From the NCBI GenBank assembly GCA_021815445.1, contig JAKAGM010000002.1, positions 225,345 through 289,344 of the forward strand: 64,000 nucleotides of DNA. Reading direction: 5' to 3'. The notes beneath the pieces are model-generated. The model was given only the letters and a program-made list of their open reading frames with translations, ran no database searches and was not told the origin of the DNA. The DNA is from a bacterium. GTDB lineage: Bacteria > Patescibacteriota > Patescibacteriia > UBA10025. The position numbers and the translations under genes were made by a program. Each line of letters begins with the position of its first letter. Position 1 is the first letter of the stretch. Shown here in pieces: positions 36,888 through 57,632 of the stretch.

Positions 36888-36890
36888 GTT

Positions 36891-37475: not shown

Positions 37476-37480
37476 AATGA

Positions 37481-38701
37481 CTAAATCTTTCTCACAATCC
37501 CTTTTGTAGCATCGACCTCCACTCGATCACCGTCCTTGAGCACCTTGGTCGCAATTTTTGTACCGACAATGCAGGGAGTCTTGAGTTCACGGGCCACAAT
37601 TGCCGCGTGCGCCGTCATACCGCCCTCGTCGGTAACAATAGCGGCGGCTTTGCGAATGGCTCCCATGAGCCAAATAGTGGTCATGGGGGAAATAAGTATA
37701 TCGCCTTTTTTCATTTTTTTCTGATCCGATCGAGTAACCACAATCTTCACCGTTCCCTCGACTTTGCCCGGGTGCGCTGTCGTGCCGGCTATATGGGAAG
37801 GATGTTCCACCTGAACGGGCTCCACGTGCAGCCGGAAATACTGTCGCGCATGTTTTCCGGAGAGGACTCGCCATTTCCCACGCAGCATCTCAATGATGAA
37901 AAAATCTTTTCTGCGTTCAATCTCCTGGGGAGACAATCTGTGGCCTTTGAAATATCGGCGCAGAGAAGCCACGTCGTACCAGATGAGGTCTTTGGAAGTT
38001 TCCCGGGGAAGGAGGACATGGAGCTGGGAGATGAGCAGGGTATAGATCTGATCAGCGATCCGTTCCCCCGCCTCGTAAAAATAAGTAAACCATCGGAGGA
38101 TTTCGACAGCCTCCCTGGCGGTACCGGTGAGCTTCAATCTCCGCATAAGTCGCGTATACTCGCGTTCGGCAGCTTGATGGGTGGTGCGTATCTTTTGAAG
38201 TATCCCCGCTACCGGCTGTGGGGCAGAGAGTACCGAGAGAGCGTGGTCAACCTTGTTTGCAGGCAGTTTCCTCGCAAGGGCCGCCCGTACCTGGCGTGAG
38301 ATGGAAGGTTCACCCCAATATCCATAGAAGATTGCCCCGCGAGCGTGGGAGAGGTGCGTGAGGTATATTGAGAACGTTTTTGCAAAGTTTTTCGGCGTCA
38401 ATCGGTGTGAACGCTGGATCCGGGTCCACCGGTGCGCCGCCTCGAGGTATTGTACAATTTGCCTGGCCATGCGTTGTATTCGCACGCCAGAAAATTCCTT
38501 CGCGATAATTGCGCGCTGCCGTGCGTAATCATCCTGCAAGTAGTACAGCGAGGTAATATTCCCCTCGCCGACAATGAGCGTGTTTGAAATGGAGGCCTTG
38601 CCAATTTCTCGGATGCTTCGATGGTACGATAACACACGCAATGATCTATCAAGCAGGGTGTTTTCACGTGTGAGTTGTTTAACCCAACGCACCTTTTTCA
38701 T
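37481..38701 (-). CDS. PEP-utilizer swivel-domain paralog 3 (406 aa)
   Basis: C-terminal TAHPGKVEGTV..DEGGMTAHAAIVARELKTPCIVGTKIATKVLKDGDRVEVDATKGIVRKI. Confidence 0.7.
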   Translation of the reverse strand: MKKVRWVKQLTRENTLLDRSLRVLSYHRSIREIGKASISNTLIVGEGNITSLYYLQDDYARQRAIIAKEFSGVRIQRMARQIVQYLEAAHRWTRIQRSHRLTPKNFAKTFSIYLTHLSHARGAIFYGYWGEPSISRQVRAALARKLPANKVDHALSVLSAPQPVAGILQKIRTTHQAAEREYTRLMRRLKLTGTAREAVEILRWFTYFYEAGERIADQIYTLLISQLHVLLPRETSKDLIWYDVASLRRYFKGHRLSPQEIERRKDFFIIEMLRGKWRVLSGKHARQYFRLHVEPVQVEHPSHIAGTTAHPGKVEGTVKIVVTRSDQKKMKKGDILISPMTTIWLMGAIRKAAAIVTDEGGMTAHAAIVARELKTPCIVGTKIATKVLKDGDRVEVDATKGIVRKI

Positions 38702-40317
38702 GGTAGTTTTTTCACGATTCCTTTCGTTGCATCAACCTCCACACGGTCGCCATTTTTAAAAATGTCCGTTGCAACTTTCGTACCGATTACGCAAGGGATC
38801 TTAAACTCGCGCGAAACCACTGCGGCATGAGAAGTAATGCCTCCCTCGTTTGTCACAATTGCTCCCGCTTTACGACAGGCGGCAATAATTTCGGGACGCG
38901 TCTGCCCAGCGACTAGTACTTGCCCTTTTCGCATAGCGGCAATCTGTGGAAGGAGGGGCAGATCGTAGGTGAGTACTTTTACCCGGCCAACAAATTTACC
39001 GGGCGAGCCGACTTCGCCGTGTACTTCGTTTGACTGGTGAGCCTGCGTATGAGACTGGACGAACCGGGCGAGCCTCGTCGCCGCTCTCCCTGTGGACAAA
39101 TACAGCCGATAATCACGCATGTGGATAACATACAACGATCTACGCATTCTGATACTTTGAATGTCGGGCCTTTTCTTTTTTTGCAAAAACTGAAGCAATT
39201 CGGTTGTAAGACAGTAATGGGCATCTTCCGCCTGCAGGCCGACTCGTCGTCCGATTTCCGCATAGAGCGGCAAACTATAGTACATTCCCCGCGTCCATGT
39301 GAAACGAATCACAAAACGCAAATGAGCGTACTCCTGGAGCATGCGAAAAAGCCAGCGGTAGTGGAGAGGCAGAGGATATCGTTTTAAAAGCCGCGCATTT
39401 TCACGCTTTGTCCGAGTTTGAGCTACGCGTGTTTGACGGAGCTTTGCACTGAGCTCTGTTGTCGGTAGCCGAAGCAACGCGATGCACTTGTCCGCAACAT
39501 CATCCATCGAGTAGTCAATCAGGTTGCTATCGGCATTAATCCATGCAAACCGCTTTTGATGCCTGTTCAGAGCTTGATAAATCGTGGGAGCCACGCATTT
39601 CAGCATTTGCAAAAAACTCCCACTTTTTACACTCTTTAGCAGCTTGCGGGATCCAGAGAGTCGTCGCATCTTTATTACGAGCGCGATGAGCCCCGCATCT
39701 TCATCCTGAAACTCGAAACGCTTCACCGGCCGGGAAAGAAGCCGCAGGATCTCTTCACGTTTTTCGGCCTTCGCAATATTGACTCGTAAATAGGAACGAA
39801 TGTGTTCTTCGACCTTGCTAAAGTACCAGGGAGCTGTGGTTTGAAAACGTCCATAAACCTCTGTCAGGGCAGCGAAATAACGCTTGGCAAATGAATGTAA
39901 TGCCGTCGTGCTAAGTTCAGCCAGATTTGTTCTTTGTGCCGTGTGGATCATCGCTGCCATCTGATCCAAGACAATTCGCGTATCTCGGATGTCGGAGCTT
40001 ACAAAGCGGCGATTTGTGAAATTCCGGAACCCTGCCGACGGCATCACTTCAAGATCCTGCTCGTTCATGTACGCTTGGATTTTGTTTTTCTTCACTATGA
40101 AGTAAAAATCACGCGAGCCCGCCCCATGGATGCGTTTGTTCCATAACGTATTGCCCCACGCGGCGATCTCCGTGCGAATTATGTAATTTCGAACTTCGAA
40201 CAGCCTTTTATACAGCTGTTTCGACATATTAGACTGTCTCGATTTTTTTAGATCCTGTAGACGTATTCTCGACTCGCATACCAGATAGCGTTCCCGGGCG
40301 GGTAGCGATGCGCGCAA
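38698..40317 (-). CDS. PEP-utilizer swivel-domain paralog 4 (539 aa)
   Basis: C-terminal GSPGKFVGRV..NEGGITSHAAVVSREFKIPCVIGTKVATDIFKNGDRVEVDATKGIVKKL. Confidence 0.7.
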   Translation of the reverse strand: MRASLPARERYLVCESRIRLQDLKKSRQSNMSKQLYKRLFEVRNYIIRTEIAAWGNTLWNKRIHGAGSRDFYFIVKKNKIQAYMNEQDLEVMPSAGFRNFTNRRFVSSDIRDTRIVLDQMAAMIHTAQRTNLAELSTTALHSFAKRYFAALTEVYGRFQTTAPWYFSKVEEHIRSYLRVNIAKAEKREEILRLLSRPVKRFEFQDEDAGLIALVIKMRRLSGSRKLLKSVKSGSFLQMLKCVAPTIYQALNRHQKRFAWINADSNLIDYSMDDVADKCIALLRLPTTELSAKLRQTRVAQTRTKRENARLLKRYPLPLHYRWLFRMLQEYAHLRFVIRFTWTRGMYYSLPLYAEIGRRVGLQAEDAHYCLTTELLQFLQKKKRPDIQSIRMRRSLYVIHMRDYRLYLSTGRAATRLARFVQSHTQAHQSNEVHGEVGSPGKFVGRVKVLTYDLPLLPQIAAMRKGQVLVAGQTRPEIIAACRKAGAIVTNEGGITSHAAVVSREFKIPCVIGTKVATDIFKNGDRVEVDATKGIVKKLP

Positions 40318-40939
40318 AGTCAGCGCGTGCTAACTCGAGGATTTGATTGTCACCGAGTTGTTCGCCCTCATGCTGCATTGCCATGTCGATGAAACGGGAA
40401 AACATGCCGTGAGTAACAAATGCGGGATTCGCACGCGTCTGTGTCCGAATACGCCGCATAAACTTGAGGAAACGTTCAGCGCGCCGGTACACATCGACAA
40501 TACTTTCGTCCACGATTTTCCCGTTAAAAAGATTCTCCGTGAACATCCGGCGAACTGCCTGCCAATCAGGAGCCGCGTCGTACATCTCGCGGCTAATGCC
40601 GTCCATAGATGGATGTACTTCATGGAGCAGGTCTGTAGGTCGCAAATCAGCTGAGAGATGAGCCTCCTCGGCCAAAAGCTCCGCGGTTTGTTTCCCCCTC
40701 AAGGCAGTCGAGTGCATGATGACATTAATATCGTTCGTTTTAATTTCTCCTCGTGACAGCTTATCTTGCAAAATTTGTCGACTCGCTTCTACATCGATCG
40801 GCGGATCAATCGTTCCCTCGATATGCTGGACAGCCACCTCGTAAGGGGGTTTCTGATTCCGTTCGATCATCGCACTCAAATTCTCGATCATGCCATGACG
40901 AAGGATGTCGGCTTGCAGGGATTCACGTTCGTTTCTCAT
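40229..40939 (-). CDS. Histidine phosphatase superfamily (PGAM-like) protein
   Basis: ILRHGMIEN N-terminal catalytic motif, FVTHGMF second His motif; ORF 3' end overlaps paralog 4 start region. Confidence 0.55.
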   Translation of the reverse strand: MRNERESLQADILRHGMIENLSAMIERNQKPPYEVAVQHIEGTIDPPIDVEASRQILQDKLSRGEIKTNDINVIMHSTALRGKQTAELLAEEAHLSADLRPTDLLHEVHPSMDGISREMYDAAPDWQAVRRMFTENLFNGKIVDESIVDVYRRAERFLKFMRRIRTQTRANPAFVTHGMFSRFIDMAMQHEGEQLGDNQILELARADFARIATRPGTLSGMRVENTSTGSKKIETV

Positions 40940-40953
40940 AGATAATAGATAGT

Positions 40954-41946
40954 TTAGTTAGCCCTCCGTGCCGTGGCTCGTCTTTTTACTATACCATTAA
41001 AACCGCTGCTGTTCACAGTTTGCATGTAGCGGATGACTAGCGGAAAAAATTGCTCATGCAAACCCCTTGTTACAGCAAGTGAGATTACCCGTCTGGTATA
41101 CAGAAAGTAACATAAGAGCAGGTGACAACTCACTGCATTCACGAATCCTCGCTGTAGAAGTAACCGCTCACGCAGCGTCAATGGTCGGTACCGTTCATAC
41201 CCGGCCAGTAATGCTTTGATACGGGCAGGAACAATTTTACCATGGTGTGAACATTGGCGCTGAAGCGCCTTGCCAATCTCGAGTATATACGGACCGATGT
41301 GAGCGAAGTCAAAGTCAATAAGTCCCACCAGCCGATTACCCCGCACTAAAATATTGAGCGGTTTAGGATCAAGATGGATAGGCCCGTGGGGCAGATCAGT
41401 AGGCAACGTGCTTAATTGCGCAGCTGATCGGACTGCTAGGTACTGTTGTCGCAAATCACTGGGCAACTTCGGATACACTGTCCGGTTAAACCAGCGAATC
41501 TTTTTCGGCGTAAAAAGATGCGTCAGAGGTTCGCGGTTAGAACGGAAAGTAAACGAGCGGCCAAGACGATGCATGCGCCCGAGGAGACCGCCGAGCTGGC
41601 GCAGCAACGACAGCGACAGCGTTTGTTGGTGATGGCCAACAATATACCTAAACACGATATACGACGAACCCTGATGCCGGAGGATAGCTTGCCGGTTTGG
41701 CAAGTGAACCACCCGGGGCACCGGTAAAGGCTTGAGGTGGTCGAGGAGTCGCACTTCAAAGGCCAGTTTCCTAGATTCTCGTAGACAGCGACGAACCACA
41801 AAATGACCTTTAGGTGTCACAATCATCCAGCTGTCATTGATAAACCCCTTCTTTAAACTACGATGCGACAGCACGAGTTCGAGCCCATACTGAGATGCAA
41901 TGAATTGAAGGAGTTGCCGAGTTTTTTGTCTATTGAATGTTTCCAT
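40954..41946 (-). CDS. APH/HSK2-like phosphotransferase (protein-kinase-like fold small-molecule kinase)
   Basis: HGPIHLDPKPLNILV catalytic loop and LIDFDFAHIG (DFD) motif. Confidence 0.6.
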   Translation of the reverse strand: METFNRQKTRQLLQFIASQYGLELVLSHRSLKKGFINDSWMIVTPKGHFVVRRCLRESRKLAFEVRLLDHLKPLPVPRVVHLPNRQAILRHQGSSYIVFRYIVGHHQQTLSLSLLRQLGGLLGRMHRLGRSFTFRSNREPLTHLFTPKKIRWFNRTVYPKLPSDLRQQYLAVRSAAQLSTLPTDLPHGPIHLDPKPLNILVRGNRLVGLIDFDFAHIGPYILEIGKALQRQCSHHGKIVPARIKALLAGYERYRPLTLRERLLLQRGFVNAVSCHLLLCYFLYTRRVISLAVTRGLHEQFFPLVIRYMQTVNSSGFNGIVKRRATARRAN

Positions 41947-41956
41947 ACATGAACGA

Positions 41957-43027
41957 CTACAGTTTTTTAATCACTCCTTTTGTTGCATCCACTTCTACTC
42001 GGTCACCATCTTTAAGCACCTTTGTCGCAATTTTGGTGCCGACGACGCAAGGTATTCGCAATTCCCTAGAGACTATAGCCGCATGGCAGGTGATACCTCC
42101 TTCATCGGTAATGATAGCGCGCGCTTTTCGAATAGCAACAATACAATCCGGATCAGTCATCTGGGTCACGAGAATTTCTCCGGCTCGGAACGCGCCAACC
42201 TCTTTTTCTGAAAAAATGAGTCTCACTTTGCCCCGCAGAGGTTTGGCACGATAGGAAGGTGTCCCATGTATACCTTTACCCGTCCCTGAGGGTTCCGTAA
42301 AAAAGTAGCCATGCTTTTGGAAAAGACTAGGCATATCCCTTGTAAAAACAAGTTTTCCGTCGATGAGCACGTACCCATGTCGCCGGCGAGCGATAGCAGG
42401 GGCCGAGGGAATGATGTTTGACTTTAGCAAAGCTTCCACCTCACTTTGTAACAACAATGCTGGATCCCGGCTGATTCCGAGCTCCTTCAGCCGCAGAAGC
42501 GTGCATGCTTTGACGAAGTTTGAAAACTCTTTCATGAGCCCCTCAGAATATACCCTATTCACATACAATCTCCGGAGGACTGGGTTCGCTTTTTTTCCAT
42601 AAGTTGACTTGTATACGTCTGCCCACGGTCCGGGAAGAAAGAGAGACAGCGTATACCAAAGGTAAATATTCTCGAGAATTCCGCGCACCTGAGAATATGT
42701 TTTCCACAGGTCGTTATCTTTCAATTTCCTCCCCATGAGTTTCCGCATTCTTCGTACTTGTTTCCGGAAGCTTTGACTGGCTGCTGCGGCATAGAGACGG
42801 TGATCAGGGGGAATAGACACCACTCTTTTTTTCATTTCCTCGACATTTTTAAGCAAACGAAAAAATCTCTGACTTCTGCCGTCATATGCGGCAATTTGGT
42901 CTTTAAAATGAACGTGCAGAGACCTATTAAGAACACCGAGTATCAAAACTTTACGCCAGTAGTCGGCGAGAAAGAGTCTGTATGGCCGGGTAAAGGTTAG
43001 TGTGAGTTCGAGAGGTCGGGGTGGCAT
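41957..43027 (-). CDS. PEP-utilizer swivel-domain paralog 5 (356 aa)
   Basis: C-terminal DEGGITCHAAIVSRELRIPCVVGTKIATKVLKDGDRVEVDATKGVIKKL. Confidence 0.7.
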   Translation of the reverse strand: MPPRPLELTLTFTRPYRLFLADYWRKVLILGVLNRSLHVHFKDQIAAYDGRSQRFFRLLKNVEEMKKRVVSIPPDHRLYAAAASQSFRKQVRRMRKLMGRKLKDNDLWKTYSQVRGILENIYLWYTLSLFLPGPWADVYKSTYGKKANPVLRRLYVNRVYSEGLMKEFSNFVKACTLLRLKELGISRDPALLLQSEVEALLKSNIIPSAPAIARRRHGYVLIDGKLVFTRDMPSLFQKHGYFFTEPSGTGKGIHGTPSYRAKPLRGKVRLIFSEKEVGAFRAGEILVTQMTDPDCIVAIRKARAIITDEGGITCHAAIVSRELRIPCVVGTKIATKVLKDGDRVEVDATKGVIKKL

Positions 43028-43054
43028 ACCTTGTACTATTAAACTTCAAGCCTT

Positions 43055-44272
43055 TCAGCGTTTTTTTGCCTGCCCATATTTCTTTTGATAGGCCTCGATT
43101 CCCGCACGAAGAATTTCCATGGCCCGCTTAATCCTCTTGACGCTCAGCACGTATGCGATCCTGACTTCGTTTTTTCCTTTATTCTTCGTGGCATAAAAAC
43201 CTGCCGCGGGAGCGAGCATGACCGTCCTTCCGCTTACTTGGAAGCTCGTGAGCATCCATCTGCAAAAATGTTCTGCATCACGCACGGGGAGCGCCGTGAT
43301 GATGTAAAACGCTCCTTCGGGAGAATACAACCCCGTCCCCGGTATTTCTTGAAGTTCTTTAACTATGGTATCTCTGCGTTTACGGTATTCTCTGACTATG
43401 GGTTTGATGAACCGGGACGCGTTTTTTAATAAAGGAATAACGGCAAGCTGGCCCAGCGACGGCGATGACAGGCGGCTCTGGGCGAATTTTTCCGCACTTT
43501 CCATTACCCGTTTGTTCCTACTTGCCAGGCAACCGATTCGCGCGCCGCACAGGTTGAAGCGCTTGGAAACGCTGTCGACAAGAACCACCCTATCATGCAA
43601 CGCAGGAAAGCTCATGAAACTCGCGGCTTTTTGCTTTTGAAAAACAATCTCGCGGTACGTTTCGTCGGTGATGATAAAAAGTTTGTGGCGGAGGGCCAAT
43701 GCGGCAATGACCTGGAGCTCGCGGCGGGTAAAGACAGTCCCCGTCGGGTTTGAAGGGTTGCAGAGGATAATCGCCTTTGTCCTGCCGGAAATAGCTTTTT
43801 CTATATCCCGCGTCGGCGGCAGGTGGAAACCGTTCGAGGCGTGCAGCGTGACCGGAGTAAAAGATACGCCTGCGATGCGCCCAAAGGCCAGATAATTCGT
43901 GTACAGAGGTTCAAAAACGACAACCTTGTCACCGGGGTCTGTCACGCTGAGCAATGCAAAAAGTATGGCTTCACTGCCGCCGGTTGTGAGCATAAGGTCT
44001 TCTTCTTTTAACCTGATGCCGAGAGAACGGTAATATGATTGCCATGCGCGTATGACGTGGTGGTACCCTTTTGAAGGGGCATACGAGAGTGTCCCGTGAT
44101 CATATTTTTTCATCTCATCAAAGAATCGTTGAGGAGTGGGAAAGTCGGGCTGGCCAATGTTAAGATGGTACACCGATACGCCCCGTTTCTCCGCTGCATT
44201 TGCAAGCCCCTGGAGCTTGCGGATCGGGGAACTGGGTGTTAATCGGGCCCGTCGTGAAATCGATGGTTCCAT
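43055..44272 (-). CDS. Class I/II PLP-dependent aminotransferase
   Basis: Fold-type I pattern with PLP lysine in SVSKRFNLCGARIG; 405 aa. Confidence 0.7.
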   Translation of the reverse strand: MEPSISRRARLTPSSPIRKLQGLANAAEKRGVSVYHLNIGQPDFPTPQRFFDEMKKYDHGTLSYAPSKGYHHVIRAWQSYYRSLGIRLKEEDLMLTTGGSEAILFALLSVTDPGDKVVVFEPLYTNYLAFGRIAGVSFTPVTLHASNGFHLPPTRDIEKAISGRTKAIILCNPSNPTGTVFTRRELQVIAALALRHKLFIITDETYREIVFQKQKAASFMSFPALHDRVVLVDSVSKRFNLCGARIGCLASRNKRVMESAEKFAQSRLSSPSLGQLAVIPLLKNASRFIKPIVREYRKRRDTIVKELQEIPGTGLYSPEGAFYIITALPVRDAEHFCRWMLTSFQVSGRTVMLAPAAGFYATKNKGKNEVRIAYVLSVKRIKRAMEILRAGIEAYQKKYGQAKKR

Positions 44273-44276
44273 ACAG

Positions 44277-45896
44277 TTATCCTTTCAATTTCCTTATTAT
44301 ACCCTGTCGGGCGTCTACAATTATAGTGTCACCGTCTTTTAATACCTTTGTCGCGTACTCTGTGCCTATAATGCACGGCTTTTTCATCTCCCTCGCGACA
44401 ATTGCCGCATGGCTCGTGATGCCTCCGGCGTCAGTCACAAAGGCCGCCGCACGGTTCATGGCGGGTAAAAGGTCGGGGTTTGTCGCAATAGCCACCATAA
44501 TGTCGCCGTACTTTACCTTACGGATGTCTTTGGCTGATTCGACGATGGCTACGCGTCCGCGAACGATGCCGGGATAAGCTGTCTGGCCTTCGATATGGGA
44601 AGCATCGCCGATTGTTTTTTGCTCGACCATCCCGAGAAACTTCCGTCGGGCAGCGCGACCGGACCAGATGCGTTTTTTACCTCGGATGCACAGCCAAAAT
44701 AGCTCGCGTGACCGTCGCTTCAATTTTATCGGATCCAACCGTTTCCCGGTTCTCAGCATGCGGATTACTTCCTCAGGATCAGCGTGGTGGAGAAGTTTCC
44801 ACGGGATTCCAAAACGCCGCCCGACCTCCCTGAGCAGCTTGTCCAAGATGAAGTTTGCGCGACAGCGAACCTCAGCGCGATATGCCTTCAAATACCAAAA
44901 CTCCTGCGCCACGGTAATGATAAATTTTTCCTGCCTTGAGAATTTTAGACTTCGTACGACACGGCGCTGTTCTTTGGCCGTGACGGCGAGCTCACCCTTG
45001 AACTGGCGCGCGGCCAGAGCAGGCCGCTTCGCAGATATCAGAAAGTGACCGATGCGATCGACAAGCACTTCAGTATTCCACGCAGGTCCCTGGTAGTTGT
45101 AGGGGAGCCAGGCGTATTTTTTGAGATGCGCGCCCAGTTTTTTTTCAATCGAGGGCATCCGCTTCATCACCCGTTCAACCGCCCCGGCAGTCGGTCGGAC
45201 ACCTTTTAATTTCCCGGAAATCTCAAGCGCGATCTCATACAATCGCATCTGCTCTTCGCGATTGATGGTCATTCGAGTCGATACCATCAGGAGATTCATT
45301 AATTCCGGAACGCGCGCCTCGTGTAGGTGCGATCGGAGAAGCGTCAGCATTCGCCTGGTAAACAGCGAATGGCCGATATCGCTGGCGGGCGGGATAAGGC
45401 CGATGTCCGAAATGCGGTAGGCAAGATTTCGAAGCTCAACAAATGAATGTCGGATACTCTCAGGAGAAATCATGCCAAACGATTGGCGGGAGAGCAGGTC
45501 GCAGAGGACAAACGTTTTGGTCCCGTACTCAATTGTTTTGGTCTTTAACGTCTTAATATCAAATGTGCCGTGCCCGATCCTCGACATGATTGACGTTCCG
45601 GCGGCGTCCCACATCTTTTTAGGCACGCCCCAATATCCGTGATCGCCCTTCAGGTAAATGTACATAGTATCTACCTTTGCCCCGGCAAGCGCCCTGTGGC
45701 GACCCAGGAGGAAACCATTTACTATCAGCGACCACATTAAGAGGTTTGCGCCGGTTTCTTCTATATAGATGGGCATGCGTTCTCTCATAGTTTCTTTACT
45801 ATTCCTTTTGTCGCGTGAGATCCTTCTCCGCCTCTGGCGGATCAGGATGGACTTGGCACGATTGAGTATTTCCAAATTAACGTAGCAATTCTTCAT
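44277..45896 (-). CDS. PEP-utilizer swivel-domain paralog 6 (539 aa)
   Basis: C-terminal TAYPGIVRGRV..DAGGITSHAAIVAREMKKPCIIGTEYATKVLKDGDTIIVDARQGIIRKL. Confidence 0.7.
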   Translation of the reverse strand: MKNCYVNLEILNRAKSILIRQRRRRISRDKRNSKETMRERMPIYIEETGANLLMWSLIVNGFLLGRHRALAGAKVDTMYIYLKGDHGYWGVPKKMWDAAGTSIMSRIGHGTFDIKTLKTKTIEYGTKTFVLCDLLSRQSFGMISPESIRHSFVELRNLAYRISDIGLIPPASDIGHSLFTRRMLTLLRSHLHEARVPELMNLLMVSTRMTINREEQMRLYEIALEISGKLKGVRPTAGAVERVMKRMPSIEKKLGAHLKKYAWLPYNYQGPAWNTEVLVDRIGHFLISAKRPALAARQFKGELAVTAKEQRRVVRSLKFSRQEKFIITVAQEFWYLKAYRAEVRCRANFILDKLLREVGRRFGIPWKLLHHADPEEVIRMLRTGKRLDPIKLKRRSRELFWLCIRGKKRIWSGRAARRKFLGMVEQKTIGDASHIEGQTAYPGIVRGRVAIVESAKDIRKVKYGDIMVAIATNPDLLPAMNRAAAFVTDAGGITSHAAIVAREMKKPCIIGTEYATKVLKDGDTIIVDARQGIIRKLKG

Positions 45897-47338
45897 AACT
45901 TTCTCACAACTCCTTTACTAGCGTCCACTTCAACTCTGTCTCCATTCTTCAAGGCCTTTGTCGCAATCTTTGTTCCGATGATGCAGGGCTTTTTCATTTC
46001 ACGAGCAACTATGGCCGCATGGGAGGTAATGCCTCCCTCGTCAGTGATAAACGCAGACGCGAGCTTCATGGCAGGAACGTATTCAGGCTTAGTGCTCGTC
46101 GCGACCAAGACTTCCCCTTTTTGGAAAGAGCGCAAATTATCGACTACATTATCAAGCCGTATGATTCGCACAGTTCCTCGAACATGTCCGGGGTAAGCGG
46201 TGGCCCCTTCTATGCTATCTGACAGTAGATGCGTTTTTTGCTCGAGGTTTTGTTCACGAAGAATTTTTCTGATACTCTCCCGTGAAGTGATAACCTCCTG
46301 TTTGCCGCTGATATAGATGTAGAGGTACTCTTTTTTTCGTTTTTGAACTTCAGATGCTTTAAGCGGCCTTCGAGATTTCAAAAACATTTCCATTTCAGGA
46401 ACCGTATACGTAAGAATATCATGTAAAGCAACACCGTATCGTCGGGAGATTTCGGCGTATAACGGAACACCGAGATAGTAGCCCTCTCCGCGATACACAT
46501 CCCTTGATTGACGAAGATAGCTATAGAGATTGACAAGGCGGGCAAGCCGACGATGTGTCACCGACAGGTCTTTGATCAACACGTTAAATGACCGACGATG
46601 CAATTGAGTTTGTTTTTCATGTTTCGCGAGTCGCTTCCTCCAGTGTGTCCGCCTGGCTAACCGTGCCTGTTTCATAATATCAGCAATGGCGATGGGGTGA
46701 CTGTCAGTGAAGCGCATACCACTCCAGCGATACCTACGAAAAAATCGTTTTGCCGCCCGTTTAAGATCAGCTTCTCCGTATGCCGCAAGTTTGATGAGAT
46801 CAATTTCTTGTTGTAAGACCGGGGTCGGTCTTACTGGGGTTATGATTGCTTTCCATTCACGTTCGCGACTGGAGGCTGGGACATGAGCGAGAAGGATCTT
46901 CTGGGCGTAGGGAACGAGATGCGTCTCAATAATAGCCGGTGGCCATAAGATAGCGTTCATTTTTTGTATTGCATGCAGATAGGCCTCATATAATAGGAAA
47001 AGCTCGCGGTCAGTCACGCTGGTCCAACAAACTTGCTCAAAATGCTTGATCTCCTTGAGACCTTGCTTCGCGTACGCCACGATTCTCTCCTGGTGACTTT
47101 GAGTCCGTCGCATATCCCTGAGCGTTTCATCGAGGATTGCCTTCCCAAACTCTTGCCATTGTTTGCTGTCAATGTACCAGCTGCCGCTCATACCGCTGCC
47201 ATGCATGATGAAGTGGTCGAAGGTAACGGGGAAGAATTTTTTAATAACCCGCTCTACCCCCAGAAAGTATAAGTCAAGTTTATTAATACTAAATCTCCTC
47301 TGTAACCCTTCTCCCCATTGTATCTTTGGAATTTTCAT
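45893..47338 (-). CDS. PEP-utilizer swivel-domain paralog 7 (481 aa)
   Basis: C-terminal TAYPGHVRGTV..DEGGITSHAAIVAREMKKPCIIGTKIATKALKNGDRVEVDASKGVVRKL. Confidence 0.7.
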   Translation of the reverse strand: MKIPKIQWGEGLQRRFSINKLDLYFLGVERVIKKFFPVTFDHFIMHGSGMSGSWYIDSKQWQEFGKAILDETLRDMRRTQSHQERIVAYAKQGLKEIKHFEQVCWTSVTDRELFLLYEAYLHAIQKMNAILWPPAIIETHLVPYAQKILLAHVPASSREREWKAIITPVRPTPVLQQEIDLIKLAAYGEADLKRAAKRFFRRYRWSGMRFTDSHPIAIADIMKQARLARRTHWRKRLAKHEKQTQLHRRSFNVLIKDLSVTHRRLARLVNLYSYLRQSRDVYRGEGYYLGVPLYAEISRRYGVALHDILTYTVPEMEMFLKSRRPLKASEVQKRKKEYLYIYISGKQEVITSRESIRKILREQNLEQKTHLLSDSIEGATAYPGHVRGTVRIIRLDNVVDNLRSFQKGEVLVATSTKPEYVPAMKLASAFITDEGGITSHAAIVAREMKKPCIIGTKIATKALKNGDRVEVDASKGVVRKL

Positions 47339-48864
47339 AACTTTTTTACCAGACCTTTATTCGCATCCACTTCCACCTTGTCTCCGTCTTTGAGCACTTT
47401 CGTGGCAATTTTCGTTCCGATGACGCAGGGGATATTCAATTCCCGTGAAACAATTGCCGCATGCGACGTCACTCCGCCCTGTTCAGTGACAATTGCCGCA
47501 GCTTTTTTCATCGCTGGAACGATGTCAGGGTTGGTGGCGATTGAAACCAAGACATCTCCAGTTTTCATTTTCTTGAGATCGGCGATAACATTTATTATTC
47601 TCACATTGCCCTTAGCCTTGCCCAGGCAGGCAGTCTGGCCACTTAACTCTTTTATTTGTGCTGAATATTGTCGACTGACCTTTTTCTTCCAGGCTCTGGC
47701 CTTCGCCCCGTAAAAAAATTGATCAAATCCTTTTTCTGCGTAATAAATGCAAAAGGTCGCTCTTTTTTTAGAATCGGATCTCAGTGTATTGCTCACGCGC
47801 TCGCGTAACGAATGCATTACTTCCTCAGGCCGCAGATACCGAGTCTGAATCAGGGGAAGTTTTAAGCGGCGGCTTAATTCCGCAAAGATAAAATCCATTT
47901 TATAGGCCCAGTAAATTTGTGCGTCTCGGCGATAGGCCTTAGTTACCGCAAACTCAGCATACACATCAAAAAGTGTTTGCTCTTTTTTACTCAGCGCGAG
48001 CAGTTTTGCCAACTTTGTTTTTTCTTGCATCGCCTGGCGCCTCACTACTTCCTCTTTCTTAACTATGTTTGCCGCCAGTTCACCCGATTTCGTCAGCTTG
48101 CGTATTTCTTTTGTAATATCAGCCCGAGTATATACGCCCTGCAAACCGAACCATAAATGCTTTAGGTGGAAAAATCTCTGCAGGTGTTTTTGGACCGCTT
48201 TCTCCAGTCCTGCCGCTGGATGCTTTGCTTGTTTGAGCGCTGCCAGTCTCAGGAGTGATTCGTGCTCCTGATTAAGGATACTTTTTTCCGCAGATACCGA
48301 CATGGTTACCAGCGCTGCGCTTACCTCATCGAGCGGTAATTTTTCTCCCAAAAGAGATTTGAGGTAGCCGGTAAAATTGTTGTGAAACATGTCAACCGCG
48401 TTCGGCAGCCAGCCCCAGGTATAGAGTGTCGTGTGCAATCTGTCGAGATCAACATAGATCCGCGCTAGCCGTTCGTTTGAGAGCAGTTGAAGCGCCTGGG
48501 GTGAAATTGTACCTGCCGCGCGCTTTAACTTATCTGAATACTCTCTGATATGGGCATTCACTGTTACGCCAAAGCGAGGACTCTGTATGAGCAAGTTCAG
48601 TAGATGTTGGCCGAAGGCAAAAGAATCCTTTTCGCCGTAATAAAATTTCAAATCGCGGCCATGGTATACGCAAAGAATTTTTTTGTAATTTCTGCCGCAA
48701 GTTTTTTCCAGATCATTGACAAAAGACGTAAGCCAAATTTCCGAAAACTGGAAATCAAGCTCGGGAATGTCTTCTGCGAGCATCCAAGGGTCTGTATCAT
48801 TGAGAAATTTGGGCCGTCGTCGTGCCATACCCTTACTATACCCGTTTTTACGCAATAAAATCAA
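47335..48864 (-). CDS. PEP-utilizer swivel-domain paralog 8 (509 aa)
   Basis: C-terminal [49 protein letters not shown]. Confidence 0.7.
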   Translation of the reverse strand: [509 protein letters not shown]

Positions 48865-48902
48865 TGGTCGTCGTTTGGGTTGCGGCGATTTTTTGAGCTG
48901 TC

Positions 48903-50501
48903 TTAAGAGATTTTTCGTATCACGCCGTTTGTTGCATCAACCATTACTTTGTCCCCGTCTTTCAGTATTTTATCCGCGCCCGGAACGCCGACGATGCACG
49001 GCGTACGAAGTTCCCGAGCCACAATAGCTGTGTGGCAGGTGAGTCCTCCGGATTCGCTGACGAGGGCGGCAGCTTTTTTCATGGCAGGAACGAGGTTCGG
49101 GTTCGTATTATGCGCGACGAGAATATCGCCTTTATGCATCTTTCCCATATCTTCGGGGATGTTGATGATTTTTACTGTTCCCCGCACTTTCCCGGGGCAT
49201 GCCGGTGTGCCCGACAGTTCATCAGTCTTGTGTAGGTGCAATTTCTCTTTATGGATCCGTTGAAAAAGCTTTTTGGCGCGATTGCCGCTCACGATGTTAT
49301 GACTGTGACGGTCGATATACGCGAGCGCAAAAAGCTGCCGCTGGTTGAGCTCATGGACGTTAAACTTTCTGTGGAGCAATGCGGGTACGATCTCGCTGGT
49401 CTTCATTGCCCATAGCTGGGCGATGGTGAGGCCGAGCCGCTTTCCGATTTCACGCAACAGCGGGTCGTACCCGTACATGCCATGGTAGATTGTTTCTTTC
49501 CGGAACCCTTTAATAAAGACCATCTGCTGCGCGAGATAGAGGAGTTTGCGCAGTCGCGGCGTGAGCGAAAGTTCCCCGGCGAGCACCCGCTGTGTATGCA
49601 GGAGCCGCAAGCGTTCAGCCGCCATCTTCCTCGCCATACTGCGCGGTGATGCCGCGCTGCGCATGAGCTGTTGCCACCGCTCAAGATATTCGCTCACGGG
49701 TGTCGCCGGCCCGCGGTACTGGTAATTGAGCCAGCAATATTTCCGATGGTGCGCGGTGATGGCACGGACCAATGCAGAATTTTTAACCCTGAGTTTTCCA
49801 AGTATGTGGTTGATGCGGGATGTCCTGAAGGTGTTTCGCGCGAACTGATTATCGTCTATCTTGACCGCTATGTTCAGGAAATCTTTTTCTTCGCGCGTTA
49901 TTGTGCTTTCCTGCCGGGGAGTGGTGAGGATGCTGAATACATCCGCGATGTGCCTCGGACTTCCGCACATTTTAAGATGCTGGTTGAGTTCATCCCATAT
50001 ACCTTTGGTTACGCGCTCATTTTCTGCATCAGCCAACCAGCTCACTGATGCGCCGTAGCCATTTTGCTTCCCGTGGGGAATCAGGCATGCTTTATACAGT
50101 GCGATAAGCTGATTGTCGGTTTTTTCGTTGAGTCGGCTTGTCAGTATCCGCTTTGACGCGCGCACAAAGTCTTTTGACCATCGCTCTACTTTAGCTATCC
50201 ATCGCAGGGCCCAGTCAGGATCCCGCAGCATCTTCGTGGCAAGGAAATCTGCCTGGGCGTCAAATTCTTTCCGCAGAAAGTACATCCGGCAAAAATCTCC
50301 CTCGAGGTACGAGAAGTAATGAGTGATATGGTTTCCGAGCGCCGCCTGGGGCCATTTCCATACCATGTACTCGGTCGGCTCGCTCATAAAAAAAACGCTC
50401 GTCTGAGCAACCTCAGCCGTACACGCCCATACTTGCCTGTAGGGAAGATTTTTCATAACGGTACAGATGGTATTTTCCCTCTTTTTTCGCAAAAAAGTCA
50501 A
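48903..50501 (-). CDS. PEP-utilizer swivel-domain paralog 9 (532 aa)
   Basis: C-terminal [61 protein letters not shown]. Confidence 0.7.
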   Translation of the reverse strand: [532 protein letters not shown]

Positions 50502-51190: not shown

Positions 51191-52399
51191 ATGCGCCGGG
51201 GGTTGATTGTCGCCGCAGTACTCGTTGCGGGTTTTTTTGTCATCCGGCCGGTGCACGCGGAACTGATTGACCGCGTAAGCGGCATGGTCCTCCTCCAGGT
51301 CCAATCCCACAGCGAGATGTGGTACGTCGATCCGGTGACAAAGTACAGGAGTTTCCTCGGGACATCTGACGATTATTATTCGCTGATACGGACAAAAGCT
51401 TTGGGTGTTACCAATGAAACTCTTGCCAAAATCCCGACGTCAGACAGTACGGCGACGGGAGATCTCGCCCTGAGGAAACGCCTCTCGGGCAGGATTCTCT
51501 TGCAGGTGCAAGACGGGGGGAAGGCCTGGTACGTCTGGCCGACGACGCAAAAGCGATATGCTCTCGGCAAGCCGAGCGACGCGTTCGCGACATTTTGGCG
51601 CCTGGGGCTTGGCATCACCAACGCCAACCTCGCGTTGATTGCCAGCGAAGGATCGCCGGTGAATACATATACATTTAAAAGTATTGCAACGTCGCGAGGA
51701 AGCTTCGTGGTCCATCTGATGACTATCGATCTCGCCAATTCAGGATTGACCGTCCTGACCGACACCGGCAACACTGTTAACTGTACAGATGCGTGCCCTG
51801 TGAGATCACTCCTGAGTTATGTACAGTCGGACAGGGGGTTCGCGGGCATCCACGGGACGTATTTCTGCCCCCCGGACTATGCGTCATGCGCGGGCCAGGT
51901 GAATTCATATTTGTATCCCGTCTATAATTCCAATCTCGGTTATTTCATAAATAATGAACGGCTGCCGTACACCAACAGCCCGCTTCTTGCCTTTGACGGT
52001 AACAATACGCCGTACTTCTTTTTGCGCACGCACGATTTCTATTCCAAAGCCCAGTTTGAATCAAGATACAATACCCGCCTCAACGCGGCGATTTCCAACG
52101 GCCCCGCGCTTATATATAACGGGAGCAATGTCGTCGCAAGCGAGCCCATGGACACGAAACAGCTGACGGTCAAGGGCAACCGGGGCGGCATAGGCATGAA
52201 AGGGATGACTATGTATCTCATCATTGCCCAAAACGCGACTGTTCCGGATCTCGCCGCTGTGATGGAGTCGCTGAAAGTCGATAACGCCATGAATTTGGAC
52301 GGCGGGGGATCCAGCGCGATGTATTTTAACGGGAGCTACAAAGCGGGGCCGGGGAGACTGTTGCCGAATGCCATCGTAATTAAAGAGAGAGGGATATAA
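51191..52399 (+). CDS. Secreted phosphodiester glycosidase (NAGPA/DUF2233) family protein with N-terminal tandem repeats
   Basis: Signal peptide; two LLQVQ..WYV.P..R..LG repeats; C-terminal NLDGGGSSAMY motif. Confidence 0.55.
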   Translation: MRRGLIVAAVLVAGFFVIRPVHAELIDRVSGMVLLQVQSHSEMWYVDPVTKYRSFLGTSDDYYSLIRTKALGVTNETLAKIPTSDSTATGDLALRKRLSGRILLQVQDGGKAWYVWPTTQKRYALGKPSDAFATFWRLGLGITNANLALIASEGSPVNTYTFKSIATSRGSFVVHLMTIDLANSGLTVLTDTGNTVNCTDACPVRSLLSYVQSDRGFAGIHGTYFCPPDYASCAGQVNSYLYPVYNSNLGYFINNERLPYTNSPLLAFDGNNTPYFFLRTHDFYSKAQFESRYNTRLNAAISNGPALIYNGSNVVASEPMDTKQLTVKGNRGGIGMKGMTMYLIIAQNATVPDLAAVMESLKVDNAMNLDGGGSSAMYFNGSYKAGPGRLLPNAIVIKERGI

Positions 52400-52500
52400 T
52401 CGACTTTTTTTAAAGCGGGATCCTGAATTGAGTTCAAGATGGTTTGTATAACCCGCTGAAGTTATTACGGTGCAATTTGAAAATAATTATTTGATACGAT

Positions 52501-52537
52501 AAAAAAACTCCCAGCTCTACCTATTCAGAGCTGGGAT
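52501..52537 (-). terminator. Rho-independent terminator (minus strand)
   Basis: Hairpin CCCAGCTCT..AGAGCTGGG followed by U-run on minus strand. Confidence 0.55.
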
Positions 52538-52896
52538 GCGCATGACCCCGTCTACGCTCGGAGTGTTTCATGCGCTCATAGTGGATGAAGGTATCGTACT
52601 TGGCGTTTTAATGTTCCTGTCCCCGTTCAGGTCGTATACCAGGCGACGCAGGCCAGTACACATTCCTGTTGCCCTCGCGAAAGTAGAAATAGAGGAGTAT
52701 CGCGAAGGGGCCGCCCGTTGCGATCATGACCACCCACTGCCACAGTATTACCAGCGGTGTGGCAACCAACTTCCATGTGAAAAAGCGCACTTGACCTCCC
52801 TTCTGTCAGTTGCCCGGCACACGGTGTCGTGCGGCAGGTAAAAAAAGATCAGGCGGACTGCAATGCCTGATCATATTTTCGCTCCGCACTCGCGTG

Positions 52897-53295
52897 CTAT
52901 TCCTGGGTCGTTTCGACCCAGATTTCTTTGACCGGAGTTCTCCGGAAATCCGACTCGCCTTTCCGAAGGTCCCCGAGGCCGAACTTTTCGCCAGGCTGGA
53001 TGGTCCCAATCTGTACCTTAGAGGTGTGCTCCAGGATCTGCATCTGTCGGAATCCATCCGTGGGCCAGCCGGCAAATACATCGTCAATCGAACGCGGAGA
53101 TCGCGAACTCAGCCGTTGTATCTGGACGGAAGTGTCCGCCGAGACTGGTCCCTGGATAAGGTACATGGCGCCGCTTTCCACCACCACGATGGCGCGGAAG
53201 ATTCCCCCGTAGTAGTCAACGGGGTCAAATTTCGCCACCTTTCCTCGACTCGGCTGCTTCTGCGCGCGAACCTTTTTTACAACGAGCGTTGGCAT
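52897..53295 (-). CDS. Hypothetical protein (132 aa)
   Basis: Minus-strand ORF preferred over overlapping plus-strand ORF because of downstream minus-strand terminator and more protein-like composition. Confidence 0.3.
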   Translation of the reverse strand: MPTLVVKKVRAQKQPSRGKVAKFDPVDYYGGIFRAIVVVESGAMYLIQGPVSADTSVQIQRLSSRSPRSIDDVFAGWPTDGFRQMQILEHTSKVQIGTIQPGEKFGLGDLRKGESDFRRTPVKEIWVETTQE

Positions 53296-53836
53296 TGTAG
53301 TGCCTCCTTACTATCGGAAGAAGAACCGTTTGTATTTCGTTACTCAACCTTTCCTTCTGAATCGTACATAACGTTCTATCATGAATCAATGAAGGTGTCA
53401 ATAGGCGGTGAGGGGTGCTGAATAAACCCTGAAGAATGGTGCGGGAAGCTCGACATTTTTTATTGTGATACAGCATACAAAGTCCGCTTGACAAAGAAAA
53501 ACATTGCGAGGAAGATTAATCTATAATCGACCTTTTACACCAACCGCCACGGTTTTTCCGTGGTATGGAAAAAAGACCCGTATTCGCGAACATTCGTGCA
53601 AGGAGGTGATGCCATGGCATGAGAATACCGACGGTTACGTAGCACCTGTCTCACTCACGGAGTACTTTCGGATCCGGGGGATCTGTCCTTGTTTTTTCAA
53701 GTATGGATAGTTGGATCCAGTATTACACGGTGAGAATGTCAGTCTCTTAGCCGCCCCTTTTTCCGGCTCGGGACTGAAGGGGGGATCAACACCAAACTCT
53801 CTCCCCTTTTTTTCGGGGAGAGGAAGGCTGGTAACA

Positions 53837-54415: not shown

Positions 54416-55417
54416 ATGAAAGTCCTTCTTGCACAACCCAGAGGATTCTGTGCCGGAGTCGACAGGGCAATCGACGTTGTTGAGTTAGCGCTGAAAGTAT
54501 ACGGCAAGCCCGTCTACGTCAAGCACGCCATAGTGCACAATGACCACGTTGTTCGCGGTCTCGAGGACAAAGGCGCTGTGTTCGTCGAAAATGTTGTTGA
54601 GATTCCCGAGGGTGCACACGCCGTGTTCAGCGCTCACGGGAGCCCGCCGTCAGATTACGAAGCGGCGAGAGCCAGGCACCTTGAGCTGATTGATGCGACC
54701 TGTCCGCTTGTCACCAAGGTACACCTCGAAGCGAAACGGTTCGGCAAGGAAGGATACACAATCCTTTTAGTCGGCCACAAAGGTCATGTTGAGCTGGTTG
54801 GAACTGGCGGGGAGGCGCCAGGGAAGGCGATTGTTCTCGAGACTGTCGACGATGTCCAACAGCTGCAGCTCCCTGCGGATGTCCGAACAGTTATCCTCAC
54901 ACAAACTACGCTCTCGGTGGATGATACGCGAGAGGTGATTGAGGCGATTAGGAAAAAGTTCCCGCAAACAGTCTTGCCTCCGTCGTCTGACATCTGCTAT
55001 GCGACGACAAACCGCCAGCGCGCCGTGAAGGAGCTGGCGAAACATGTTCAGCTGGTCTTAGTCGTCGGGTCGCAAACAAGCTCGAATACTAATCGGCTTG
55101 TTGAAGTGGCAAAAGCGCACGGCGTGGCCGCGTACCGGATCAACTCGTCGGACGACATCAATCCTGACTGGCTCAAGGGCGTGGAAAGTGTCGGTGTGAC
55201 ATCAGGCGCGTCGGCGCCCGAAGACCTCGTGCAATCTGTTGTCCAATATCTACGGACACGCGGCGCGGCAGCAGTTGAAGATTTCACTGTACTTCAAGAA
55301 CGCGTATGGTTCAATCTTCCTCAGGAAATTCGCGACGCCGCGAAAAAACGGGGAATTGATACTTCCCTGGTTCAAAAGCATCATATAGCCTCCGATCACC
55401 GGATGGGGACCGCCTGA
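54416..55417 (+). CDS. ispH: 4-hydroxy-3-methylbut-2-enyl diphosphate reductase
   Basis: MKVLLAQPRGFCAGVDRAI N-terminus and overall LytB pattern with three conserved Cys regions. Confidence 0.85.
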   Translation: MKVLLAQPRGFCAGVDRAIDVVELALKVYGKPVYVKHAIVHNDHVVRGLEDKGAVFVENVVEIPEGAHAVFSAHGSPPSDYEAARARHLELIDATCPLVTKVHLEAKRFGKEGYTILLVGHKGHVELVGTGGEAPGKAIVLETVDDVQQLQLPADVRTVILTQTTLSVDDTREVIEAIRKKFPQTVLPPSSDICYATTNRQRAVKELAKHVQLVLVVGSQTSSNTNRLVEVAKAHGVAAYRINSSDDINPDWLKGVESVGVTSGASAPEDLVQSVVQYLRTRGAAAVEDFTVLQERVWFNLPQEIRDAAKKRGIDTSLVQKHHIASDHRMGTA

Positions 55418-55559: not shown

Positions 55560-56264
55560 CTATTTCGGTGGAGGATTTTGCGGTCCGTACGTAGCTTCCT
55601 CGTCCAGCTCGCTTACGGCGACAAACCGCTTCAGCGCCGTACCGACAGGCCAGGAGGTTTGGAGCGTCAAAAGTTTTCGCTCGTTGTTCTGTTGGTCAAG
55701 AACCGACGTGTCCTTCGGACCGACGATTTTTGTTTCAGTCACCTTGTATATGAAAAGTTTGCCTTCATGGTTGGTTATGCGAACAACAGTGCCGATCGGA
55801 ATATCGACAAGCGGTTTAAATACCTGCTTATAGTTTCCCGGCTTCCATTTATAATCTGACGAATGGCCGAAGATGTACATGTTTCCCGCTTCACCCGGCA
55901 GGGCGGTATCCGGGTAGTGGACAACGCCTTTTGTCAGGGCATCCTGAAAAGTCTTTTCATCCGCTCCATCTATATATACGATCGGGGCGTCAATTTTTCT
56001 GTCAGCAATGACTAGGTGGTCGGGCGTCCCTTTTTCAAGAGGGATGCGGGGCGGAGCGGGCTTGTCGCCGCTTGCCGGGAGCTTTCCCGAACCGTTCATA
56101 TTCGAAGTCAGGACAATATCAGTTTGTCCCTGCCAACGGGCAAAGACGATGCCCCCGGCAATAATTACCGCTCCAAGAGCCGCCATAACAATGAAGTACT
56201 GTTTCTTACTTAATCTCAATTTCATAGTAGGGTTGATTGTAGCAGGAGTTTCTGGCGTGTTCAA
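55560..56264 (-). CDS. Sortase-family protein with Ser in place of the TLxTC catalytic Cys
   Basis: N-terminal TM; sortase fold motifs (VHYPDTALPGEAGNMYIFGHS, KIVGPKDTSVL, KLLTLQTSWP, downstream Arg); codon TCC encodes Ser where Cys is expected. Confidence 0.55.
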   Translation of the reverse strand: MNTPETPATINPTMKLRLSKKQYFIVMAALGAVIIAGGIVFARWQGQTDIVLTSNMNGSGKLPASGDKPAPPRIPLEKGTPDHLVIADRKIDAPIVYIDGADEKTFQDALTKGVVHYPDTALPGEAGNMYIFGHSSDYKWKPGNYKQVFKPLVDIPIGTVVRITNHEGKLFIYKVTETKIVGPKDTSVLDQQNNERKLLTLQTSWPVGTALKRFVAVSELDEEATYGPQNPPPK

Positions 56265-56453
56265 TAGGCGGGCGGATCATGTGGAGAGCGCAGGCGCAGC
56301 GGCCTGCGCTGGGCGTTTTTTATATGTTTATCAAGGATTTTCATATATTCTGACTCCACATTGGAGAAAAGGGCATCTTGACAGTACTGCTACTGTGGCG
56401 TAGAATCATATGAAAACTTCAAAACGCACACTTTCCATGAGAAGGAGTCAAAG

Positions 56454-56897
56454 ATGACGTCTGGAAACTGGAAGAGGGTTGTTGCTTTGGACCCGTCGCA
56501 ACTGAAAGAGGGCGGCGGGGTACTCATTGCGACCATCAATGGAGTCGTGTACCTTATAACACCGCATGAGAAGAAGAAAGGTATGTTCAGGATGGACCAC
56601 GCCTTCTCCATTCATGAACTCTACGACGAGGAGGCCCTCGTACAGAAGATTCGCGACCATGAGAGCGGTGATCCGCCGCACGGGTGGCATGCGGGGCGTG
56701 TGGAGGTTTCCTTCGTCAGGAATGAGATTCCTCTCAAAATCGACATTACTGCCCCGATCGAAGTTGCCCGTCCGATGCTCTATGTCGTCTACTTCGACCC
56801 CGATGCTGCCAGCTGGGACTCACTGCATCTTACACAGGAAGTCGCGGAGATTCGAGTGAGTGATGGCCCTATCGTGTGGGCAAAAGAAACGCGATAA
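56454..56897 (+). CDS. Hypothetical protein (147 aa)
   Basis: Intact ORF with plausible composition; no recognisable motif. Confidence 0.4.
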   Translation: MTSGNWKRVVALDPSQLKEGGGVLIATINGVVYLITPHEKKKGMFRMDHAFSIHELYDEEALVQKIRDHESGDPPHGWHAGRVEVSFVRNEIPLKIDITAPIEVARPMLYVVYFDPDAASWDSLHLTQEVAEIRVSDGPIVWAKETR

Positions 56898-56975
56898 CAC
56901 CGACTAAGCTGTTTAAACAGCTGAGGGCAGATAGCGATATCTGCTCTATTTTCTTTTTCATGGTATTCTATCAGT

Positions 56976-57632
56976 ATGCCGACTCCTCGGATGGAAAAAA
57001 TCATTCCCGTACTCAAACGCGAAGTGAAAAAATACCAGACGCCGATTGTTGAAGTCATTGCCGCCGAGCGAAATGACCCGTTCACGATCCTCATTTCGAC
57101 TATGTTGAGTTTACGCACTAAGGATACGACGACTGCCGAGGCCTCCCGGCGGCTGTTCCGTGTTGCCAACACTCCGAAAAGTATGTTGGAGCTTACCGCA
57201 AAACAGATTGAGAAGCTCATCTACCCGGTGGGTTTCTATAAGACAAAAGCAAAAAGCATTCTCAGGACATGCTCGATACTTAGAGAACAGTATGAAGGCA
57301 AAGTTCCGGATACCATAGAACAGCTTGTCGGGCTTCCCGGTGTGGGGAGGAAAACGGCAAACTTGGTGGTGAGTCTCGGCTTCGGCAAAGACGGCATCTG
57401 CGTCGATACGCACGTCCACCGAATTTCGAACCGGCTAGGGTATGTCGAAACGAAGACTCCTTTTGAAACCGAGATGGCACTTCGCAAGAAACTTCCCCGA
57501 AGGTACTGGAAGGATATCAACGTCCTTTTGGTCACGTGGGGGCAGAACGTCTGCGCGCCTATTTCACCACATTGCTCTGCCTGCGCAATCCGGAAATGGT
57601 GCACAAGGAGAGGGGTGACTACAGCCAGGTAA
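56976..57632 (+). CDS. nth: Endonuclease III
   Basis: HhH LPGVGRKTANLV, catalytic Lys/Asp regions, C-terminal 4Fe-4S motif C-x6-C-x2-C-x5-C. Confidence 0.85.
   Translation: MPTPRMEKIIPVLKREVKKYQTPIVEVIAAERNDPFTILISTMLSLRTKDTTTAEASRRLFRVANTPKSMLELTAKQIEKLIYPVGFYKTKAKSILRTCSILREQYEGKVPDTIEQLVGLPGVGRKTANLVVSLGFGKDGICVDTHVHRISNRLGYVETKTPFETEMALRKKLPRRYWKDINVLLVTWGQNVCAPISPHCSACAIRKWCTRRGVTTAR

Follow-up and report, generated by a model that had tools for sequence, protein, structure and literature searches.

Ultra-small Patescibacteria (CPR) bacteria encode a large family of membrane-anchored sortases in which the catalytic cysteine is replaced by an invariant serine, and many family members sit next to surface proteins carrying an LPRTG sorting signal, which points to an apparently undescribed serine-based version of the enzyme that attaches proteins to bacterial cell walls. 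The family was identified from a gene in the 64,000-nucleotide stretch of DNA analysed here (hereafter the window), which lies on the minus strand at positions 55560-56225 and encodes a protein of 221 amino acids from an ATG at 56225 to a TAG at 55560-55562. The mechanical open reading frame extends further, to a TTG at 56264 (234 amino acids), whereas the database annotation starts 13 codons later, at codon 14 of our reading. We favour the ATG because a sigma-70-like promoter match (TTGAAC, 17 nt, TGnTACAAT; 56264-56236, minus strand) lies just upstream of it and because homologues start with the same basic and then hydrophobic N terminus. The promoter is a consensus match only and would give a very short or leaderless 5' end. 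On the opposite strand, at 56287-56322, a strong GC-rich hairpin followed by a T-run (AGCGCAGGC...GCCTGCGCT GGGCGTTTTTT) lies between the divergently transcribed sortase gene and a 147-aa ORF. No plus-strand gene ends there, and its role (antisense or bidirectional terminator, or regulatory element) is unexplained.

To assess whether the protein is a sortase, we compared it with profile and structure databases. It matches the Pfam Sortase family (PF04203, MEROPS C60) with E=5e-21 and 75 bits against a cut-off of 26.6, and the generic NCBIfam model sortase_fam above its cut-off. The AlphaFold2 model (mean pLDDT 89.5) shows an N-terminal helix at residues 7-33 (56127-56207; pLDDT 94-97 over residues 11-30), preceded by the basic stretch KLRLSKK, then a short low-confidence linker and a beta-barrel catalytic domain at residues 66-208 (55602-56030), which Foldseek matches to solved sortases of classes A, C, D and E at probability 1.0. 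The N terminus thus has the features of a signal anchor, although the extracytoplasmic topology itself is inferred. HMMER alignments to solved sortases place TLQTS on TIVTC of Clostridium perfringens SrtD (PDB 4d70) and LLTLQTSWPVG on LLTLVTCTPLG of A. oris SrtC2 (8t28), so that Ser191 lies exactly where sortases have the TLxTC cysteine. The protein contains no cysteine at all.

The preliminary description of this gene had reported a sortase-fold protein with an N-terminal anchor, the segments GNMYIFGHS, KIVGPKDTSVL and ALKRF, and the codons ACC TCC TGG (T190-S191-W192) at the position of the nucleophile, and this observation is confirmed in every detail. The Ser191 codon TCC lies at 55653-55655 and Gln189 at 55659-55661, within the motif T187-L-Q-T-S191-W-P193 (55647-55667). 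His121, corresponding to the sortase catalytic His, lies at 55863-55865 at the start of H121-S122-S123-D124 (55854-55865), the end of a GNxYxFGHSSD motif, and Arg200 of ALKRF, equivalent to the conserved sortase Arg, lies at 55626-55628 (all on the minus strand).

The same description had left two possibilities, a natural Cys-to-Ser variant or a single-base error in which TGC was read as TCC, and had named conservation of the serine in orthologues as a way to separate them. The ORF, TCC included, is base-for-base identical in the NCBI MAG GCA_027341205.1 (contig DAIENG010000002.1) and in a Logan assembly of run SRR13299515. A homology search returned 542 hits, of which all of the 120 best, 40-67% identical and from many samples and sources, have Ser in TLQTS[YW]P (121 of 121 close homologues). 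An exhaustive HMMER search of 1.84 billion cluster representatives, which is not biased by any motif, gave 5351 hits at E<=1e-3. Of the 149 best aligned representatives (50%-identity clusters), 111 carry TLQTS[YW]P and 37 carry TL[MI]TC. A scan of one genome per species found 175 genomes with relatives; those with an informative label are named as Patescibacteria/CPR lineages (Kerfeld-, Doudna-, Uhr-, Yanofsky- and Veblenbacteria, Kazan and Parcubacteria), while a few carry other or generic labels. The pattern used in that scan contained the Ser, and it was therefore used for context and codons only and not for frequency. In 83 serine-sortase domains from 80 loci fetched from these genomes, the Ser codon is TCT in 24, TCC in 21, TCG in 18, TCA in 18 and AGC in 2, which indicates that the third position is saturated while the amino acid never changes, and that two lineages have even crossed to the other serine codon family. 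Although TCC is one transversion away from TGC, sequencing or assembly error is effectively refuted. The interpretation as a natural variant is confirmed, and it extends to a whole family rather than a single gene.

To investigate whether the active site is degenerate or re-tooled, we compared the Ser and Cys groups position by position. His121 (149 of 149) and Arg200 (148 of 148) are invariant in both groups, and Thr190, Pro193 and the GN..x.GHSS motif are conserved. In contrast, Gln189 is found in 99% of the Ser clade and 0% of the Cys clade (Met/Ile instead), Asp124 in 95% versus 19% (mostly Tyr/Asn), Tyr117 in 86% versus 3% (Phe/Val instead), Tyr192 in 89% (the rest mostly Trp, as in this protein) versus 3% (Trp commonest, 57%) and Ala197 in 90% versus 8%. 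Residue 189 is two positions before the nucleophile, and so on the same face of the strand, and corresponds to Ile182 of Staphylococcus aureus SrtA when the LTLITC and LTLQTS motifs are aligned. Of 111 Ser-clade catalytic domains, 91 contain no cysteine, so that no alternative thiol is available in most of them. A neighbour-joining tree built without the nucleophile column puts all 37 Cys sequences in one pure clade, and a single branch therefore separates the two types; because all other sortases use Cys, the Ser state is the derived one. The accompanying changes trace to this one evolutionary event, and their co-occurrence is suggestive rather than statistically independent. Asp124, which is nearly specific to the serine clade, is replaced by Asn, Arg or Gly in some distant members, so that a strict Ser-His-Asp triad is not established, and a Ser-His dyad assisted by Arg200 and Gln189 is equally possible; active-site distances were not measured. 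Ser191 and His121 nevertheless occupy the positions of the sortase Cys/His pair, which by itself leaves it undecided whether the protein belongs among the Ser-His(-Asp) acyl-transfer enzymes.

The strongest functional evidence comes from genomic context. We called and clustered ORFs in the 80 fetched loci (up to 20 kb each), numbered with the prefix L. In 43 of the 80 loci, the nearest upstream gene of at least 150 aa lies on the same strand and ends in a classical cell-wall sorting signal; among the assessable loci outside the subclade of the window's gene, the count is 40 of 59. The median intergenic gap is 50 nt, and several of these genes overlap the start of the sortase gene. Across 46 such proteins the motif counts are L46, P46, R42, T46 and G46, and the extended consensus is P-x-P-x-V-L-G-A-[AT]-[TD]-E-LPRTG-[LF]-P followed by about 20 hydrophobic residues and an Arg/Lys tail. 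The proteins are 199-1550 aa long and carry SpaA-type prealbumin-like, SdrD B-like, DUF642 or DUF11 domains, which are typical of Gram-positive adhesins and pilins. In 21 loci (e.g., L015:6357-7682, minus strand, L017, L019, L022 and L024), a membrane protein of about 435 aa with a CAP/SCP/PR-1 domain (PF00188) and a His-rich N terminus (HFIPHxGNxHxPH) converges on the 3' end of the Ser-sortase gene, often overlapping it by a few bases, giving a recurrent module of LPRTG adhesin, Ser-sortase and, on the opposite strand, the CAP protein.

Four family proteins from different assemblies (P0140, encoded at L051:8876-10429, P0269, P0148 and P0169) are natural single-ORF fusions, in the order surface domains, [E/D]LPRTG, TM helix, RRLK, second TM helix and Ser-sortase domain. 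This hairpin topology places both substrate and enzyme outside the cell. A homologue search with the fusion protein was swamped by low-complexity words and returned only 8 hits, but it yielded P0269, which is 74% identical to P0140 over its whole length, showing that the fusion has persisted through 26% sequence divergence. To see whether LPRTG docks in cis, we modelled P0140 with AlphaFold2; the segment came out disordered (pLDDT below 50) and was not placed in the groove, which neither supports nor contradicts recognition. No Cys-type sortase domain occurs in the fetched loci (about 1.4 Mb) or in the window. The only extra sortases are additional Ser-type copies, with two loci (L037:9794-11812 and L043:9791-11111) carrying two tandem Ser-type paralogues, and no locus pairs a Ser-type with a Cys-type sortase.

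The window's own gene belongs to a subclade (L001-L014, 51-65% identical) in which the sortase is flanked by housekeeping genes. In the window these are ispH, convergent at 54416-55417, and the 147-aa hypothetical protein and endonuclease III, divergent at 56454-57632, and the relatives show the same ispH/nth or ruvB neighbours. A search of the genome for LPXTG-type substrates had been suggested in advance, and we performed a six-frame scan for [LIV]P.[TSA]G followed by a helix and a basic tail. The scan found no genuine signal in the window, none was present in the 10 kb beyond each end, and none of the 14 loci of the subclade has an adjacent sorting-signal protein. A Big-domain surface protein just outside the window ends in a plain TM anchor without LPxTG, and apparent LPFAG/LPFAS signals near the closest relatives (L002 and L008) turned out to be the GMN-motif C terminus of CorA magnesium transporters. 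Cognate substrates are thus evident for the family but not for this gene, which leaves the question undecided in its case; its substrates, if any, lie elsewhere in the genome, beyond the sequence examined. Three genes from the sortase, a NAGPA (PF09992) protein (51191-52399, plus strand) carries two copies of a short module, LLQVQxxGExWYVxPxxxxRY, that Pfam does not cover, and the same module, together with bacterial TSP3 repeats, is fused N-terminally to several Ser-sortases from other genomes (proteins P0134, P0149, P0150, P0158 and P0178).

Elsewhere in the window, a tandem array of about ten paralogous genes (33688-50501 together with 30129-31145, both on the minus strand) encodes proteins that each end in a PEP-utilising-enzyme mobile (phospho-His swivel) domain (PF00391) with near-identical C termini (TSHAAIVSRELKIPCVIGTK...DGDRVEVDATKG). 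One is fused to a HAD hydrolase domain (33688-35805), and an aminotransferase-like gene and a transposase-like gene are interspersed; this is an unusual expansion for a small genome. An Rfam group I intron match (13346-13558, plus strand; 54 bits, gathering score 50) lies in an intergenic stretch just downstream of a 110-aa ORF with an HNH-like CxxCH motif (12965-13297). ARAGORN finds no tRNA there, so the host gene of the intron is unclear. A stretch of about 1.3 kb (52400-53700) has only short, mutually overlapping ORFs on both strands, with no Pfam hits in the public annotation and no Rfam match, and may be non-coding or hold degraded genes.

By profile, predicted fold, predicted N-terminal anchor, conserved His and Arg and the substrate type of the family, the protein is a sortase, but by the defining chemical feature, the catalytic cysteine, it is not a canonical member. 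The canonical cysteine sortases nearest by score are class D and E models, SrtD (4d70) and SrtC2 (8t28). These share the eight-stranded beta-barrel, a His at the end of the GH strand, a TLxT-nucleophile-xP strand with an Arg on the next strand and, with the family as a whole, genetic pairing with LPxTG proteins on SpaA/CnaB-like adhesins. The protein has Ser in place of Cys, its extended motif is GNxYxFGHSSD...TLQTS[YW]PxGTAxxR, and the family's substrate motif is (E)LPRTG. It reaches no curated cut-off among the NCBIfam models for classes A-F, the best being class D at 53.1 bits (cut-off 165) and class E at 46.1 bits (cut-off 160). All 80 family members tested behave alike, none doing better than E of about 1e-17 to 1e-18. 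The nearest relatives are the Cys-type sortases of the sister clade (TL[MI]TC[WT]PxGT...R; e.g., P0211, P0235 and P0268), which share GN..x.GHSS, Thr190, Pro193, Gly195 and Arg200 and are 40-54% identical in the catalytic domain, but keep Cys and have M/I, F/V and Y/N/D at positions 189, 117 and 124. Six sampled contexts of this clade (L081, L082, L088 and L090-L092), mostly short contigs, showed no adjacent sorting-signal protein and are too few to conclude anything. Databases label family members simply as sortase, class E sortase or hypothetical protein, which hides the difference. The literature contains the general statement that more than half of CPR genomes encode a sortase family (PMC6744442), but searches on serine sortases, pseudo-sortases, loss or replacement of the catalytic cysteine, natural LPRTG systems and CPR sortases found nothing relevant, although subscription-only papers were not covered and prior description cannot be fully excluded.

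Of the two outcomes that the preliminary description had allowed for a natural variant, an inactive pseudo-sortase or a serine-based acyl-enzyme transpeptidase, the evidence favours the latter, and we consider an active serine-nucleophile sortase somewhat more likely than not. A residue kept invariant under synonymous saturation, an otherwise intact His/Arg apparatus, a re-modelled neighbourhood around the nucleophile and operon-like and fused linkage to proteins that retain a complete cleavable sorting signal together fit a working enzyme much better than a decayed one. What the analysis itself demonstrates is the fold, the position and strict conservation of Ser, His and Arg, the single Cys/Ser split in the family tree and the linkage and fusion to LPRTG proteins, whereas the catalytic competence of the serine, the roles within a triad or dyad and the acceptor are inferences from sequence and context. 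In this view, a type-II membrane-anchored, extracytoplasmic enzyme would recognise the C-terminal signal P-x-P-x-VLGA-[TA]-[TD]-E-LPRTG with its hydrophobic helix and basic tail. Ser191, activated by His121 as general base, would attack the Thr-Gly bond, possibly helped by Asp124 and Gln189, while Arg200 may stabilise the oxyanion or position the substrate. The resulting acyl-(oxy)ester would be resolved by an amine of the peptidoglycan precursor, anchoring SpaA/SdrD-B/DUF11-type adhesin-like proteins on the cell surface, with the window's copy acting on substrates not encoded next to it, in the manner of a housekeeping sortase. There is no biochemical evidence for any member, and transpeptidase activity through an acyl-enzyme was not tested here. 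Serine acyl-enzymes resolved by amines have a precedent in the DD-transpeptidase penicillin-binding proteins, and Ser/Cys exchange within one fold in chymotrypsin-fold serine proteases versus picornaviral 3C cysteine proteases; these families are unrelated to sortases, and no such exchange in the sortase fold turned up in the literature searched.

A catalytically dead pseudo-sortase that still binds LPRTG signals as an escort, retention factor or regulator, with processing done by another enzyme or not at all, appears unlikely but possible. Serine is a much poorer nucleophile than a thiolate, simple Cys-to-Ser swaps usually inactivate cysteine enzymes, Asp124 is not absolute, and a Cys sortase elsewhere in these genomes cannot be excluded, as whole genomes were not examined for one. 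However, pseudoenzymes normally lose constraint on the former catalytic residues, and no such relaxation is seen here: Ser, His and Arg are invariant over hundreds of divergent sequences with synonymous saturation at the Ser codon, the linked substrates keep a complete, highly conserved cleavable signal, and the fusions would leave an adhesin permanently tethered to a dead domain. An active serine hydrolase that releases or matures surface proteins without ligating them to peptidoglycan is, in our view, slightly less likely still. It rests on the same evidence for catalytic competence, an oxy-ester intermediate can partition to water, the fusion architecture only requires cis-cleavage, and the acceptor in the Patescibacteria envelope is unknown, but the substrates retain the full three-part signal typical of wall-anchored proteins and look like adhesins or pilins, for which release would defeat the purpose, and serine acyl-enzymes are fully capable of transpeptidation, as in penicillin-binding proteins.

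Sortases are defined in textbooks and reviews as cysteine transpeptidases (e.g., PMC8225981, PMC8703055), and a natural, strictly conserved serine version with identifiable substrates would add a new catalytic type to a heavily studied and heavily engineered enzyme family. A thiol-free, oxidation-insensitive sortase recognising LPRTG would be of interest for protein-ligation chemistry, and thiol-directed sortase inhibitors would be predicted not to act on these enzymes. The family also offers a natural experiment in how a fold re-tunes its active site when Cys becomes Ser, with Gln189, Asp124 and Tyr117 as candidate residues. It identifies the likely machinery and cargo, SpaA-, SdrD-B- and DUF11-domain proteins, that uncultured, host-attached Patescibacteria use to decorate their surface. 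If a large, Patescibacteria-wide clade has indeed switched its nucleophile from cysteine to serine and remained active, which we consider slightly more probable than not, it would sort (E)LPRTG adhesins through an oxy-ester acyl-enzyme and would possibly be the main or only surface-protein anchoring enzyme in many CPR lineages.
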